Source of the DNA: an uncultured Gemmatimonadaceae bacterium
GTDB taxonomy: Bacteria > Gemmatimonadota > Gemmatimonadetes > Gemmatimonadales > Gemmatimonadaceae
Length of the DNA: 64,000 bases
Assembly (NCBI GenBank): GCA_964537775.1
Contig: CAZICQ010000015.1
Span: forward strand, 5,935 to 69,934
Reading direction: 5' to 3'
Shown piece after piece: positions 7,919 through 58,915 of the stretch (within the stretch, counting starts at the first letter, position 1; each line of letters opens with the position of its first letter). The position numbers and the translations under genes were made by a program. Under the pieces are notes generated by a model. It made no database searches, was not told where the DNA came from, and worked only from the letters and a program-made list of their open reading frames with translations.

Positions 7919-9477
7919 ACGCCGCGAGCTCGATCGGTCACCCGAACACGGTCGCGATGGGGTTCTTCGTTCTGTTCATCGCCATCACGTTAGGCATCAC
8001 GTACTGGGCGGCGCGACGGACGAGGACCACGGAGCACTTCTATGCCGCCGGCCGCACGATCACCGCCGGCCAGAACGGCTTCGCCCTCGCCGGCGATTAC
8101 ATGAGCGCGGCGTCGTTTCTCGGCATTGCCGGCCTCGTGTCGACGACCGGATTCGACGGCTTGATCTACTCCACGGGCTGGCTGGTGGGCTGGCCGGTTG
8201 TGCTCTTTCTCATCGCCGAGCCGCTCCGGAATCTTGGACGCTACACCTTCGCCGATGTCGTGGCGTTGCGGCTACGCCAGCGCCCCGTGCGCATCGCAGC
8301 GGCGATCGGCACGCTCGCCACAGTGATTCTGTACCTCATCGCGCAGATGGTCGGCGCGGGCGGGTTGATACGCCTGATGTTCGGCCTCAGCTACGAGACG
8401 GCCATCGTTCTCGTCGGCGTCGCCATGATCGCGTACGTGTTGTTCGGCGGCATGCTGGCCACCACGTGGGTGCAGATCGTGAAGGCCGCGCTCCTTCTGA
8501 CCGGCGCCTGCCTGCTCGCCCTGCTCGTGCTGGCGCGTTTTGGAATGAATCCGGCGGCGCTGTTCGCCGCCGCGGCGGCAAAGTATGGCAATGGCGTGCT
8601 CGCGCCGGGGAAGCTGGTGTCGAACCCGCTCGACGCGATCTCGCTCGGCATGGCGCTGATGTTCGGCACCGCCGGCCTCCCGCACATTTTGATGCGCTTC
8701 TATACGGTTCCGGACGCGAAGGCCGCGCGCACGAGCGTGTTCTACGCCACGGGGCTGATTGGCTTCTTTTATCTCCTCACCTTCGTTCTTGGCTTCGGCG
8801 CGATGGTGCTGGTTGGCCCCGACGCGATCAAGGCCGTCGACAAGGGAGGAAACATGGCGGCGCCGCTGCTCGCGGAGCTGCTCGGGGGCACGCCCTTCCT
8901 CGGGTTCATCGCCGCGGTGGCCTTCGCTACGATCCTGGCGGTGGTCGCCGGACTCACGCTGTCCGGCGCGGCCGCGCTCTCTCACGATCTGTGGGTGAAC
9001 GCTGTGCGCGGTGGTGAGGCCAGCTCGACGGAACAGTTCCGCGTGGCGCGGATGGCGACGGTCTGTCTCGGCGTCATCGCGGTCTTCCTCGGCATCACCT
9101 TCAAGAGCCAAAACGTGGCGTACATGGTGGGACTCGCGTTTGCGATCGCCGCCAGCGCGAATTTTCCGGCGCTCCTGCTGTCGATGTTCTGGCGGCGCCT
9201 GACGACGGCGGGCGCGGTGTCGAGCATGCTCTTTGGCACGGTCGCGACGCTGGTGCTGATCTATCTCTCACCCACCCTGCAGATCGACGTGTTCAAGCAC
9301 ACGACCGCCACCTTCCCGCTGAAGAATCCGGCGCTCGTCACGATTCCACTGTCGTTCATCGTCTGCATCGTCGTGTCGCTGCTCGGCTCGAGGCCCGCCG
9401 GCGAGGGCGATGCCGAGCGACATCGGGAGCACGAGCGACAGATGCACCTCGGCGCGCCCGTCGTGGACGTCGGCTAG
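7915..9477 (+). CDS. actP: Cation/acetate symporter ActP (sodium:solute symporter family)
   Basis: 520 aa polytopic protein. The N-terminus FFVLFIAITLGITYWAARRTRTTEHFYAAGR..GQNGFALAGDYMSAASFLG is typical of ActP/SSF proteins. Confidence 0.85.
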   Translation: MNAASSIGHPNTVAMGFFVLFIAITLGITYWAARRTRTTEHFYAAGRTITAGQNGFALAGDYMSAASFLGIAGLVSTTGFDGLIYSTGWLVGWPVVLFLIAEPLRNLGRYTFADVVALRLRQRPVRIAAAIGTLATVILYLIAQMVGAGGLIRLMFGLSYETAIVLVGVAMIAYVLFGGMLATTWVQIVKAALLLTGACLLALLVLARFGMNPAALFAAAAAKYGNGVLAPGKLVSNPLDAISLGMALMFGTAGLPHILMRFYTVPDAKAARTSVFYATGLIGFFYLLTFVLGFGAMVLVGPDAIKAVDKGGNMAAPLLAELLGGTPFLGFIAAVAFATILAVVAGLTLSGAAALSHDLWVNAVRGGEASSTEQFRVARMATVCLGVIAVFLGITFKSQNVAYMVGLAFAIAASANFPALLLSMFWRRLTTAGAVSSMLFGTVATLVLIYLSPTLQIDVFKHTTATFPLKNPALVTIPLSFIVCIVVSLLGSRPAGEGDAERHREHERQMHLGAPVVDVG

Positions 9478-9561
9478 AGATCACGCCGTTCGAGCAGTAC
9501 ATTCGCACGCGTGTCACCGATGTTGCCACGAGATCACAACCACTCTGCGTCAGGAGACCGT

Positions 9562-10236
9562 ATGCGCAGTCTGCTCAGCACTCTCGCTCTGCTCGTCTTC
9601 GCGGCGCCATTGGCCGCACAGAAGCCACAAGGCAGAGATGACGACCCCACGCACAAGGTCGCCGGTGGAACGGTACCCGCCGGATGGACGGTGCGCGTCG
9701 ACGACAAGGACGCCGTGCGTGGCATGTCATCGGCGAATCTGAAGTTCGTGGGCATGGGCACTGGTTATCACGTCACGGCCGGCCCCGCCGCGATCTTATA
9801 CAACCCGAACGACGTCGTGACCGGTAACTACACAGTCCATGCGTCGTTCACGCAGACCAAAGCGCCGATGCATCCCGAGGCCTATGGCCTGGTGATCGGG
9901 GGAAAGAACCTCCCCGACAGTACGCAGGAGTACATGTACTTCATCGTGCGCGGCGACGGGAAGTACATGATCAACCACAGAGGCGGATCCGTGGTACACA
10001 AGCTCGTGGACTGGACGCCGAGCGATGCCGTCCACAAGGCAGACGAGTCGGGAAAGGCCACTAACGATCTAGCGGTGCGGGTGACGAGCGATTCGGTGGC
10101 GTTCATCGCCAACGGCACACCGGTGCAGACGTTCGCGAAGTCAGAGCTGCATGGCTTCAACACCGATGGTCAGGCGGGATTCCGCGTCAACCACAATCTC
10201 GACGTGCACGTCGCGAACTTCGGCATCACGAAGTAG
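9562..10236 (+). CDS. Secreted protein of unknown function (beta-rich, possibly jelly-roll/LamG-like)
   Basis: ATG at 9562 preceded by AGGAGA (9552-9557). Signal peptide MRSLLSTLALLVFAAPLAAQ. In frame with track ORF 9511..10236. Confidence 0.7.
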   Translation: MRSLLSTLALLVFAAPLAAQKPQGRDDDPTHKVAGGTVPAGWTVRVDDKDAVRGMSSANLKFVGMGTGYHVTAGPAAILYNPNDVVTGNYTVHASFTQTKAPMHPEAYGLVIGGKNLPDSTQEYMYFIVRGDGKYMINHRGGSVVHKLVDWTPSDAVHKADESGKATNDLAVRVTSDSVAFIANGTPVQTFAKSELHGFNTDGQAGFRVNHNLDVHVANFGITK

Positions 10237-56426: not shown

Positions 56427-56862
56427 CATACTCGTGTTCGCGCTCGCTGTGCTTGCCTCGTCAACCGGCTGCCGCCACGCCGCCCCGCAGGTCGCGCCCG
56501 TGACCGGCGCGTCCGAGCATGTGACGCTGGCGCGCATCTATTACTGGCGCGCGCGCCCCGGTCAGTTCGACAGCTACACGCGGTACGTGCGTGACGTGGC
56601 GGAGCCGATCGACCACGAAGCCCAACGCGCCGGAGCGTTCATGAGCATCACCACCTTCATCACGCGCGACGCGAGCAGCCCGTGGTCTCACATGCGGGTG
56701 TTCCTCCTGCGCGACTCTACCCAGCTCGCCGGTCTCGGTGCCGCGCTCGATGCAGCGGGCGTGCGCGTGCAGCCGGACTCGATCAAGCGGAAGGCGCAGT
56801 CCGATTACGCCGCCACGCTGCGCGACCGCGTTGGCGATGCGACCGTCGAGGTGCTCCCGTGA
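56407..56862 (+). CDS. Lipoprotein of unknown function
   Basis: Signal plus lipobox MIGRAPNILVFALAVLASSTGC. Overlaps the tag 3' end by 20 nt. Confidence 0.6.
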   Translation: MIGRAPNILVFALAVLASSTGCRHAAPQVAPVTGASEHVTLARIYYWRARPGQFDSYTRYVRDVAEPIDHEAQRAGAFMSITTFITRDASSPWSHMRVFLLRDSTQLAGLGAALDAAGVRVQPDSIKRKAQSDYAATLRDRVGDATVEVLP

Positions 56863-57092
56863 TGACCGCGGGCGTGCGCACGAGCATTCTGGCGTGGAGC
56901 ACCTTCTCCGGAGCGCTGCTCGGATTTTTCGCCGGCATTCTGCTCGTCGCCCTCGGCTACGCCGCCCTTCAGCTGCTGCAGCCGCGCTCGGAGTTGGCTT
57001 GGCTCCGCGTTGCGGCCGTCGTGTGCCTCCTGCTCTTCCCGGTGGCCGGAGCCGTCCTCGGATTTCTCGAAGGACGGCTCAAGCTCTTGTGA
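56862..57092 (+). CDS. Small two-TM membrane protein (76 aa)
   Basis: The ATG shares 1 nt with the preceding TGA (TGATG at 56860-56864). Two hydrophobic helices. Confidence 0.5.
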   Translation: MTAGVRTSILAWSTFSGALLGFFAGILLVALGYAALQLLQPRSELAWLRVAAVVCLLLFPVAGAVLGFLEGRLKLL

Positions 57093-57665
57093 TCACCAGA
57101 TGCTGGCCCGCTTCGCCCACGAACTGTTCTGGTATCGTTGCTTGAATGCGCGTCCGAGCTCCTGGAGCGCCGCCACTTCGTGGCTGCCGCTGTAGCGAGC
57201 GACCCCGCTCCAGTACAGCGCTTCCGGCGCGGCATCGGTGTTCGGCAGCTGATCCACGATTTGCTTGTACCACTCCTCCGCTTCCGACCAGGCCTTGCGG
57301 TCCACTGCCAGGTCGCCCGCCGCGAGCTCGAGCTGCGCTAGAAACTCATCGATAGGGAGAAAACCCTCGACCCGCCGCACTTCCTTTCCATTCGCATCCA
57401 ACACGAGCACCGTTGGCGTCCAGCGCACGTCGAAGCGGTGCCACATCGTGGGCTGCTCCTTGATGTGAATGCGCACGGGCACGAACTGCTCGCGAACGAA
57501 CGCGGCCACGCGCGGATGCGGATACACCTCGGCTTCCAGCCGAGCACAACCCCCTCAGGCAGGAGCGGCGGTGAAGTCGAGGAGGAGCGGACGTTTCGTG
57601 CTCTTCGCGTCAGCCAGGGCGGCGTCGACGTCCTTGCGCCACGGAATCTCGTCGTTCTTCGGCAT
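57093..57665 (-). CDS. Thioredoxin-fold protein with in-frame TGA at the first redox position (candidate selenoprotein, U-G-G-C motif), 190 aa if read through
   Basis: Track ORFs 57555..57971(-) and 57093..57527(-) are in the same frame. Translation from the ATG at 57665 gives MPKNDEIPWRKDVDAALADAKSTKRPLLLDFTAAPA-TGA-GGCARLEAEVYPHPRVAAFVREQFVPVRIH...WTPTVLVLDANGKE.... The TGA is at 57557-57555. Confidence 0.65.
57528..57544 (-). promoter_or_regulatory. SECIS-like hairpin CUCGGCU-GGA-AGCCGAG starting 10 nt 3' of the in-frame UGA
   Basis: Perfect 7-bp stem read directly, with a G-rich apical loop. The spacing resembles the ~11-nt spacing of the minimal E. coli fdhF SECIS. Confidence 0.5.
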
Positions 57666-57736
57666 TGGTCTCTCGCGGTTGAGCTTGCGGCCGAGCTGTC
57701 GCACACCTCGTTCCACTGGGCACACCCCGCGGTCCC

Positions 57737-58915
57737 TCAGCTCGAAAAGTAAGCGGCGTTCTCCTTGATGTAGCCTTCCGTGAGATCGCAGCCGTACGCG
57801 GTCGCCGTTCCGTCGCCCACGCCGAGCGTCACGATCAGATCCACCGCGGTCGCCCCGAGCGCCGTGCGCACGACTGTCTCGTCGAAGTCGAGCCGCTGTC
57901 CTCCGCCCACTACGGCGTGGCCATTGATCCACGCGTCGGTGCGCGACGGCTCGATGACGCAGTCGAAGCATTTGCCGACAGCCATCAGCAGCCGGCCGAC
58001 GTTCGGATCGGCGCCGTGCACCATCGTCTTTACGAGGGGCGAGTTGACGATCGACTTCGCGACCCGGCGCGCCTCGTCGTCGTTCCGTGCGCCGCGGACG
58101 GTCGCGCGGATGAGATGCGTCGCTCCTTCACCGTCGCTCGCGAGCGTCTCCGTCATCCGGATGCAGCCGGACGTGAGTGCGTCCAGAAACGCCGCCTCGT
58201 CGACCGCGCCAGCGAAACCGTTGGCGAGGATGGCGCAGGTGTCGGACGTGCTGGTGTCGCTGTCCACCGACAGCATGTTGAACGACCGATGCACTGCGTA
58301 CCGCAGCATGCGGTTCAGCGTATCCGCGTCCAACGCCGCATCCGTGAACACGTAAGCGAGCATCGTCGCCATGTTCGGCTCCACCATGCCCGACCCCTTG
58401 GCAACCCACGTGATCGTGGCGTTGCCCACGGAGCACGACGCCGCTTTCGGAAAGCTGTCCGTCGTCATGATGCCCTCGGCGCCAACGAGCGGATCGTCCT
58501 GGAGCTCGCGCGCGATGCCCGTGAGCCCGCGCTCGATCGTCTCGATGGGCAGCCGCACGCCGATGACGCCCGTCGAGCTCACGAGGACGCGATTCTCGGT
58601 CGTGCCCAGCTCCTTGGCCGCCGCAGCCGCCATGCGGCGCGCGTGCTCCACGCCGGCGGTGCCCGTGGCCACGTTACTGAATCTGCTGTTCGCCACGATG
58701 CCGCGCAGCCGCACCCCCCCACCCCCTCCGGCGCGAATCGTCTCCCGTCCCAGAATCACCGGTGCGCCGGGGAAGTGATTACGCGTGAACACCGCGGCGG
58801 CGGCGGCGTCCACGTCGCTGGCGAACAGAGCGACATCCTTCGCCGTCGGCTTGAGACCCACGTTGCGGCTCGCGCAGCGGAAGCCGCGCGGAAGGCGCGG
58901 GCGTTCGTGAAACAT
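57737..58915 (-). CDS. argJ: Bifunctional ornithine acetyltransferase / N-acetylglutamate synthase ArgJ
   Basis: 392 aa. Autoprocessing site PNMATMLAYVFTDA and the C-terminal GCDLTEGYIKENAAYFS. Confidence 0.92.
   Translation of the reverse strand: MFHERPRLPRGFRCASRNVGLKPTAKDVALFASDVDAAAAAVFTRNHFPGAPVILGRETIRAGGGGGVRLRGIVANSRFSNVATGTAGVEHARRMAAAAAKELGTTENRVLVSSTGVIGVRLPIETIERGLTGIARELQDDPLVGAEGIMTTDSFPKAASCSVGNATITWVAKGSGMVEPNMATMLAYVFTDAALDADTLNRMLRYAVHRSFNMLSVDSDTSTSDTCAILANGFAGAVDEAAFLDALTSGCIRMTETLASDGEGATHLIRATVRGARNDDEARRVAKSIVNSPLVKTMVHGADPNVGRLLMAVGKCFDCVIEPSRTDAWINGHAVVGGGQRLDFDETVVRTALGATAVDLIVTLGVGDGTATAYGCDLTEGYIKENAAYFSS

Follow-up and report, generated by a model that had tools for sequence, protein, structure and literature searches.

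A probable UxxC thioredoxin-fold selenoprotein gene with a tetratricopeptide-like C-terminal domain, mis-split at its active site in an uncultured Gemmatimonadaceae bacterium

In a 64,000-nucleotide stretch of DNA from an uncultured Gemmatimonadaceae bacterium (assembly GCA_964537775.1, contig CAZICQ010000015.1, positions 5,935 to 69,934 of the forward strand; hereafter the window, whose numbering is used unless another locus is named), two adjacent open reading frames (ORFs) on the minus strand are separated by an in-frame TGA. We conclude that they are very probably a single gene that was mis-split by ORF calling, and a genuine selenoprotein gene, in which the active-site residue is most likely selenocysteine (Sec, U) encoded by the in-frame UGA. 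Judged from its sequence, the product is best explained as a cytoplasmic two-domain oxidoreductase, in which a DsbD-gamma/Thioredoxin_7-type fold carrying the motif U37-G-G-C40 would be joined to a short tetratricopeptide repeat (TPR) domain of the YbgF/CpoB type. The interest of the gene lies in its breadth in soil lineages, in its systematic mis-annotation and in the use of Sec that it implies in Gemmatimonadaceae.

Gene structure and conservation of the in-frame TGA

The first ORF (57971-57555) terminates at the TGA at 57557-57555, and the next ORF in the same frame starts with the GTG at 57527, 27 nucleotides (nt) past that TGA. Reading through from the ATG at 57665 to the terminator TGA at 57095-57093 gives 190 codons on the minus strand and the product MPKNDEIPWRKDVDAALADAKSTKRPLLLDFTAAPA-U-GGCARLEAEVYPHP..., where the TGA is codon 37 in the context ...LLLDFTAAPA-U-GGC-ARLEAEVYP.... 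The codon of the resolving cysteine, a TGT at 57548-57546, follows three codons after the TGA and sits in the 27 nt outside both split ORFs; this Cys40 is invariant in an alignment of 43 full-length homologues. The initial annotation had described the same arrangement with the same coordinates, namely a minus-strand ORF that stops at a TGA, a same-frame ORF that begins 27 nt on, the TGA at the first cysteine position of a C-x-x-C, and the resolving cysteine three codons later and inside the gap; our analysis confirmed each of these points, with U-G-G-C as the motif. The readthrough product is a full-length family member with which the other members align end to end, and an identical sequence is present in an independent Logan contig. 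We regard the structure of the gene and the position of the U as demonstrated. The gene and the elements discussed below are as follows, where SECIS stands for selenocysteine insertion sequence and P0002 is a Cys homologue.

57093-57665, minus strand: complete gene of the probable selenoprotein; ATG 57665-57663, 190 codons including the Sec codon, terminator TGA 57095-57093; the N-termini of homologues start at the same place
57555-57557, minus strand: in-frame UGA, codon 37, first position of U-x-x-C; TGA in 80/80 species loci, Cys at this column in 45 representatives
57546-57548, minus strand: TGT codon of Cys40, resolving cysteine of U-G-G-C; invariant in the 43 homologues
57528-57544, minus strand: SECIS-type hairpin; 5′ arm 57544-57538, loop GGA 57537-57535, 3′ arm 57534-57528
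57330-57656, minus strand: thioredoxin-fold domain, residues ~4-112, DsbD-gamma/Thioredoxin_7 type; from Pfam, a PDB profile and Foldseek on the P0002 model
57411-57422, minus strand: W-T-P-T, residues 82-85; W82, T83, P84 and T85 are invariant in a 20-sequence alignment
57111-57326, minus strand: C-terminal helical TPR-like domain, residues ~114-185, YbgF/CpoB type; from a PDB profile, and helical in the P0002 AlphaFold model

A homology search returned 314 matches. Among the best 120, which were inspected, only 11 cover the site and the remainder begin past the TGA, as is typical where gene callers halt at an in-frame TGA. The residue at the U position is W in nine of the spanning matches and C in two; the W forms, which are JGI gene calls, correspond to TGA in the DNA, and the C forms to TGC and TGT. 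The two close Cys forms of the clade to which the window gene belongs (L083:113-706 and L084:19-618; TGC, TGT) each come from a single contig of ~1 kb. A scan of one genome per GTDB species then identified 238 loci that encode a relative, of which the best 80, all from different GTDB species, were retained. TGA stands at the aligned codon in 80/80 of these best loci, within the motif DF[ST]AAP[AM]-U-xGC-ARL[DE]AE, and the protein is conserved on both sides of it. Carriers of the TGA form include the complete Pyrinomonadaceae chromosome OY970256.1 and the MAG with contig CAVZBP010000003.1, and contigs JBJMOW010000005.1 and CAVOSV010000001.1 belong to further carrier MAGs. The 80 loci are 49-67% identical to the query and are mostly labelled Gemmatimonadaceae or Gemmatimonadales; the other labels include, from the Acidobacteriota, Pyrinomonadaceae, Bryobacteraceae, Thermoanaerobaculia, Terriglobia and Vicinamibacterales, as well as Verrucomicrobiota, Binatia, Eisenbacteria, Myxococcales and one metagenome-assembled genome (MAG) labelled Clostridia. 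UGA is not reassigned in these organisms, because the window gene and 35/80 orthologues use TGA as their terminator. Nor does a reading as two ORFs hold, because the first ATG, GTG or TTG past the TGA lies at a distance that varies from 10 to 118 codons across the loci, with no conserved restart codon.

To this series of TGA-containing loci a profile search of 1.84 billion cluster representatives added homologues with cysteine. It gave 119 matches at E ≤ 1e-30, and the listed ones shorter than 260 amino acids (aa) were aligned; Cys occupies the U column (C-x-G-C) in 45 cluster representatives, and 81 representatives are without the N-terminal part. From these 45 representatives it follows that the classic Sec/Cys pairing is present. 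The initial annotation had raised the question of whether homologues carry Cys aligned with the TGA, and they do, in the 45 C-x-G-C representatives and in the two close TGC/TGT forms. Homologues do not end at the TGA, since the protein is conserved on both sides, and the TGA is not a strain-specific nonsense mutation, as it is found in the 80/80 orthologous loci and in 80/80 loci of a sister clade described below. The conservation of the TGA is thereby demonstrated.

The hairpin downstream of the TGA

A 7-bp hairpin, CUCGGCU-GGA-AGCCGAG (57544-57528), had been noticed 10 nt past the UGA, and we found it exactly there. It can be read either as 7 bp with a GGA loop or as a 6-bp core, CUCGGC/GCCGAG, with the loop U-G-G-A-N, starting after the 10-nt spacer. 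Folded alone, the 21-nt hairpin has a free energy of -11.2 kcal/mol (z = -3.0), and 1/200 shuffles is equally good. The folding energy alone is weak evidence, because the 61-nt stretch around the hairpin is ordinary for DNA of 66% G+C (z = +0.43); the decisive evidence is comparative and consists of the TGA and the hairpin codons in 80/80 species.

The 18 nt GCU CGG CUG GAN GCC GAG (codons 41-46) are near-identical in 81 sequences, those of the window and the 80 loci. When codon entropy was computed at every conserved amino-acid column of these 81 genes, it was 0-0.39 bits at the hairpin columns, compared with 1.2-2.3 bits, and 3-6 codons in use, at all other conserved Arg, Leu, Ala, Pro, Gly, Val and Thr columns. 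The low-entropy codons are precisely those that form the stem, and their commonest forms are:

Ala41: GCU, 92%
Arg42: CGG, 81/81
Leu43: CUG, 81/81
Ala45: GCC, 81/81
Glu46: GAG, 93%

Six stem pairs are kept in 91-100% of 76 distinct sequences; four of the seven pairs never vary, and one pair includes two compensatory changes from CG to UA. The hairpin is missing from distant Cys forms (L087, GCC CGC CTG GAC GCT GAG; L089, GCG CGT CTC GAG GGG GAC; L091, GCG CGG CTC GCC GCC GAG), whose peptides, ARLDAE, ARLEGD and ARLAAE, are the same or closely similar. Constraint on the hairpin at the level of the RNA is thus demonstrated.

The dimensions of the element were compared with those laid down for bacterial SECIS elements in the bSECISearch model, as given in PMC13188914, where MFE is the minimum free energy:

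Apical loop: required 3-9 nt; observed 3-5 nt
Upper stem: required 4-16 bp; observed 6-7 bp
G in the first two loop positions: required; present, U-G-G-A-N fitting N1-G-[G/U]-N-N2
Spacing from UGA to loop: required 16-37 nt; observed 16-17 nt
MFE: required ≤ -7.5 kcal/mol; observed -11.2 kcal/mol

The suggestion that the hairpin occupies the position of a minimal bacterial SECIS is borne out by these values together with the strong synonymous-site constraint. It resembles the bacterial consensus (PMC13188914) in its small G-G apical loop, its upper stem of 6-7 bp, its spacing of 16-17 nt and its energy below -7.5 kcal/mol; its sequence bears no relation to that of the fdhF element of E. coli, and its invariance across phyla is unusual.

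The sister clade provides a comparison in which both the peptide and the hairpin differ. Many truncated representatives begin with MDAVTYP, and a metagenome scan with one such family protein, P0145, as the single query yielded 80 loci (L092-L171). TGA is present at the same position in 80/80 of them, in the motif DFFNP[GNQ]-U-IGC-xQMDAVTYPN, ~21 nt ahead of the annotated ATG, so that gene callers start at the Met just past the motif. The hairpin of this clade, GGAUGC-AGUUAC-GUAUCC, has G-U in its loop, a distance of 20-21 nt from UGA to loop and one compensatory change from AU to GC. Here too codon entropy drops locally: GAU is used in 100%, ACG in 100% (versus 1.98 bits at another conserved Thr) and UAU in 97%. 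That the hairpin keeps its place in two clades that differ in both peptide and hairpin sequence is what is expected of a SECIS.

Selenocysteine decoding and competing explanations

A number of observations weigh against the interpretation of the gene as a selenoprotein gene or against the function that we propose for it. Searches of the 64 kb window and of the flanks around the 80 loci (≤ 10 kb each side) revealed no selA, selB or selD and no tRNA-Sec gene. The tblastn searches of the window and loci for SelA, SelB and SelD used E. coli sequences as queries; ARAGORN detected no tRNA-Sec in the window or the 80 loci, and the window is without any tRNA gene. The absence is uninformative, because it is close to the chance expectation for 20 kb per genome, and it neither supports nor refutes Sec decoding. 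Gemmatimonadetes are not among the Sec users in a 2016 census of Sec-using bacteria (PMC5029168), which lists Koribacter, Solibacter and Chloracidobacterium among the Acidobacteria with SelA, SelB and SelD. The cultured relative Gemmatirosa kalamazoonensis does not have the gene at the syntenic site (L172, CP007128.1, 2537832-2551004); the selenoprotein gene is therefore variably present within the Gemmatimonadaceae. As to the hairpin, the stem is almost invariant with essentially no covariation inside the clade, and no match to an Rfam family, SECIS or other, was found in the window at the gathering threshold. In addition, the two closest Cys forms (L083 and L084, both GCT CGG CTG GAT GCC GAG) and L088 retain the hairpin codons, so that conservation of the hairpin nucleotides is not strictly tied to the TGA. 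We read these forms as recent Sec-to-Cys conversions that keep a fossil SECIS; they may also be read errors on single short contigs. Finally, with respect to function and to a partner of the TPR domain, no conserved gene neighbourhood was found, no cluster of flanking genes being common to more than 7 loci.

Some candidates that arose in these searches were rejected. Three weak SelB-like matches were obtained, of which those in L060 and L077 proved on inspection to be TypA/BipA and LepA, and that in L023 mirrors L060 with the same identity and alignment span. A permissive Rfam search of 57400-57700 returned only a chance miRNA match. An apparent flanking cluster of 17 loci consists of ORFs antisense to the gene itself and is an artefact.

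Independent support for Sec use came from one flank. In L065, a Polarisedimenticolia MAG (Acidobacteriota), a gene for an AhpC/TSA peroxiredoxin (Pfam 102.9 bits; 9255-9806, plus strand) lies on the same strand as the family member whose start is at L065:9999, ~190 nt upstream of it. The peroxiredoxin gene encodes a signal-peptide-like N-terminus and has an in-frame TGA at the peroxidatic position, in P-K-A-F-T-G-G-U, that is, in the motif PxxxTxxU of experimentally verified Sec-peroxiredoxins (PMC13188914). This is likely a second selenoprotein gene. The peroxiredoxin and the thioredoxin-TPR protein possibly form a functional pair of peroxidase and reductant, at which this single adjacency only hints. 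A scan for in-frame TGA codons with coding signal on both sides gave no convincing further candidate in the window, and in the loci it gave only the L065 peroxiredoxin. A Pyr_redox_2 gene that is called as two pieces of 59 aa and 157 aa (L002:10962-11646, minus strand, and the same place in L012) was discarded, as its readthrough is out of frame and Arg-rich and looks like the result of a frameshift or a pseudogene, not of a Sec codon.

We considered four other explanations for the interrupted frame. The least tenable, to which we give almost no credence, is that the TGA is a nonsense mutation or an assembly error in this strain. It would account for the two pieces in the ORF track and for the annotation of the downstream piece only by gene callers and NCBI, but the TGA occupies the same codon in the 80/80 species loci and the 80/80 sister-clade loci with purifying selection on both sides, the independent Logan contig is identical, and loci at 49-67% identity to the query are not copies of one contaminating sequence. 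It is also extremely improbable that translation ends at the UGA and that the downstream part is made separately from the GTG at 57527, as a naturally split or truncated thioredoxin-like protein. A GTG does stand 10 codons past the TGA in the window and in 42/81 loci, whereas in the other 39 the first possible start is 16 to 118 codons downstream; moreover, under such a split Cys40 would go untranslated and the rest of the fold would be cut off from strand beta-1 and the nucleophile, and the peptide encoded in the 27-nt gap (x-G-C-A-R-L-[DE]-A-E) is conserved.

The two remaining alternatives accept readthrough and concern the way in which it is brought about. If the hairpin had another role, in mRNA stability, in attenuation or as a protein-binding site, and UGA decoding were independent of it, the retention of the same nucleotides by close Cys forms and the lack of covariation inside the clade would find an explanation. 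We hold this to be very improbable, because in the sister clade another hairpin stands equally far from the UGA, the hairpin is lost in distant Cys forms whose peptide is the same or closely similar, and its position and loop fit the bacterial SECIS model. Somewhat less remote, though still improbable, is the recoding of UGA to a residue other than Sec, either to Cys by a tRNASec-like tRNACys of the selC* type (PMC5389517) or by near-cognate readthrough that the hairpin stimulates. This would agree with the lack of Sec machinery in the window and the flanks of the 80 loci, with the existence of opal-suppressing SelC*-type tRNACys in some anaerobes (PMC5389517), and with the fact that Cys works at this position in homologues. 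By contrast, SelC* has been reported from anaerobic Firmicutes, Thermodesulfobacteria, Nitrospirae and Proteobacteria and not from the phyla concerned here (PMC5389517); the geometry and the G-containing loop of SelB-binding SECIS elements recur in two clades; 160/160 loci retain TGA, although a Cys product would be encoded more simply by TGC or TGT; and a seleno-peroxiredoxin gene adjoins one family member. SECIS-directed insertion of Sec at codon 37 is thus the explanation that we prefer.

Protein architecture, proposed function and relation to known selenoproteins

With U written as C, the product matches Pfam Thioredoxin_2 (PF13098; 5.1e-15, 56.1 bits against a cut-off of 27) and Thioredoxin_7 (PF13899; 1e-13, 51.7 bits against a cut-off of 27), and further Pfam matches are Thioredox_DsbH and Thioredoxin. 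The assignment to the thioredoxin fold of the Thioredoxin_7 type, which had been based on the sequence around the active site, therefore stands above the Pfam gathering thresholds. A profile of the 43 full-length homologues searched against PDB sequences matched, over residues ~8-117, the Thioredoxin_7-type protein 2kuc (4.6e-17) and DsbD-gamma (4ip6, 1uc7 and 2fwe, ~1e-14), and over residues 114-185 the TPR domains of YbgF (2xev, 3.6e-11) and CpoB (6g5s, 1.8e-10); the NCBIfam model tol_pal_ybgF was matched at 4.2e-06, under its cut-off. As a structural model we used the AlphaFold prediction for P0002, which is 55% identical to the window protein (pLDDT 97.4, pTM 0.91). The model places C33-x-x-C36 after strand 23-28, where helix 34-43 begins, in the active-site geometry of thioredoxin, and its residues 101-196 are all-helical. 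Its top Foldseek match in the PDB is DsbD-gamma (2fwg; TM score 0.76, root-mean-square deviation (rmsd) 2.0 Å). E. coli YbbN/CnoX (3qou) is aligned across both domains (205 columns, E 4.3e-06), with a poor superposition (TM score 0.42, rmsd 11.6 Å). The class of the fold is thereby demonstrated. P84 in the invariant W-T-P-T is presumed to be the cis-proline of the thioredoxin fold, from which the cis-Pro loop was deduced. The protein is presumably cytoplasmic, because its N-terminus is hydrophilic and begins a few residues before the first conserved Trp.

On this architecture we propose the following mechanism. The UGA at codon 37 would be decoded as selenocysteine, with the G+C-rich hairpin of 6-7 bp in the coding sequence acting as a bacterial SECIS that would recruit SelB-GTP-Sec-tRNASec to the ribosome. 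The selenolate at the N-terminus of the first helix would attack a disulfide or a sulfenic acid of the substrate, and Cys40 would resolve the resulting mixed selenenylsulfide. As CnoX/YbbN and the Trx7/PDZ selenoprotein suggest by analogy, the TPR domain probably picks the protein partner. What we infer from the motif, the hairpin and these analogies is the dependence on SelB, the chemistry, and a role of the TPR domain in partner binding.

The gene appears to be an uncatalogued new member of an established class, the UxxC thioredoxin-fold selenoproteins, and introduces no new principle. A 2026 catalogue (PMC13188914) comprises 119 prokaryotic selenoprotein families, with related entries including 'Trx7/PDZ' (CxxU), VPGUxxT, TsoB and several further thioredoxin-like ones; no TPR-containing entry was found among the 119 families, and the words TPR and tetratricopeptide are absent from PMC13188914. 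The 'Thiol:disulfide interchange protein' selenoprotein (a Kryukov and Gladyshev family as listed there; representative WP_011366075.1), compared by Pfam family and motif only, shares PF13098 and a U-x-x-C active site with the window family; both have an in-frame hairpin directly after the Sec-UGA, and both have Cys homologues. The window family differs in adding a C-terminal TPR domain, in having no signal peptide and in being found mainly in Gemmatimonadota and Acidobacteriota. The NCBIfam families NF041199 (Trx7/PDZ), NF041383 and NF041382 (VPGUxxT) and NF045694 (TsoB) all carry Sec in a domain of the Thioredoxin_7/DsbD-gamma type, and Trx7/PDZ also fuses its redox domain to a protein-binding module; however, their motifs are CxxU or VPGU and their partner domains PDZ or rhodanese, whereas the window protein has UxxC and TPR. 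Against the NCBIfam 20.0 models the window protein stays under the cut-offs, with 35.1 versus 300 bits for Trx7/PDZ, 47 versus 275 and 27.8 versus 350 for types 1 and 2 of VPGUxxT, and 51.7 versus 805 for TsoB, and the sister clade and the Cys forms also reach no curated cut-off in that release.

DsbD-gamma is the closest in solved structures and sequences for residues ~8-110 and has its C-x-x-C at the same place; it uses Cys and sits in the periplasm as part of a membrane electron transporter, whereas the window protein is small, soluble and apparently cytoplasmic, with a TPR tail. The CnoX/YbbN chaperedoxins (PMC8129009, PMC10998233) have in common with it a thioredoxin fold followed by TPR helices and, presumably, a cytoplasmic location, and 'thioredoxin-like negative regulator of GroEL' is the name that JGI gives to some members of the family. 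However, the two superpose poorly, their thioredoxin domains belong to different Pfam types, and the window protein has a much shorter TPR part (~75 residues), which matches the YbgF/CpoB type. A literature search that combined selenoprotein terms with CnoX/YbbN found no description of a Sec form of CnoX. A more far-reaching proposal, which we put forward tentatively as possible rather than probable, is that the gene represents an uncatalogued family of cytoplasmic Thioredoxin_7-TPR 'seleno-chaperedoxins', which hundreds of soil and sediment species keep near-exclusively in their Sec form. With its presence in Gemmatimonadaceae, such a family would show that Sec is decoded in a phylum that the 2016 census does not list, its members might serve as partner-specific reductases, for example for the L065 seleno-peroxiredoxin, and the near-invariant SECIS might point to a joint horizontal spread of gene and SECIS.

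The gene is carried by at least 238 species-level genomes and many metagenome contigs, in which gene calling leaves it split or truncated at the active site. The NCBI records of the family are proteins of 152-156 aa named 'thioredoxin (fold domain-containing protein)' that start past the TGA, in agreement with the expectation of the initial annotation that automated annotation misses such genes. Because gene callers cut the gene at its active site, databases show neither its redox function nor its dependence on selenium; a family model that makes an exception for Sec would put hundreds of annotations right. The gene implies Sec use in Gemmatimonadaceae and in other abundant aerobic soil lineages, where selenium biology has been little studied. 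Moreover, its compact SECIS of 18 nt, near-invariant across phyla and wholly coding, offers a convenient test case for SelB-SECIS recognition beyond Proteobacteria and Firmicutes.

The remaining genes of the window are ordinary housekeeping genes. Downstream of the selenoprotein gene, 13 nt past its stop codon, lies an inverted repeat, GAGCCGTCC(T)...(A)GGACGGCTC (57049-57080, minus strand), of 9-10 bp with a loop of 12-14 nt and no T-run; it escaped the terminator scan and overlaps with the 3′ end of an ORF on the plus strand (56682-57092) whose reality is doubtful. On the upstream side, 71 nt (57666-57736) separate the ATG from the stop codon of argJ (57737-58915, minus strand). The window ArgJ is 81% identical to that of G. 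kalamazoonensis, the closest cultured relative by this protein, and its named matches are Gemmatimonadaceae; in G. kalamazoonensis a MacB/FtsX transporter gene follows argJ instead. The linkage of argJ and the selenoprotein gene is not kept in other species, and the same arrangement is also present in contig L001. No sigma-70-like promoter was found in the gap at 57666-57736, and argJ and the selenoprotein gene may be co-transcribed in the source organism.

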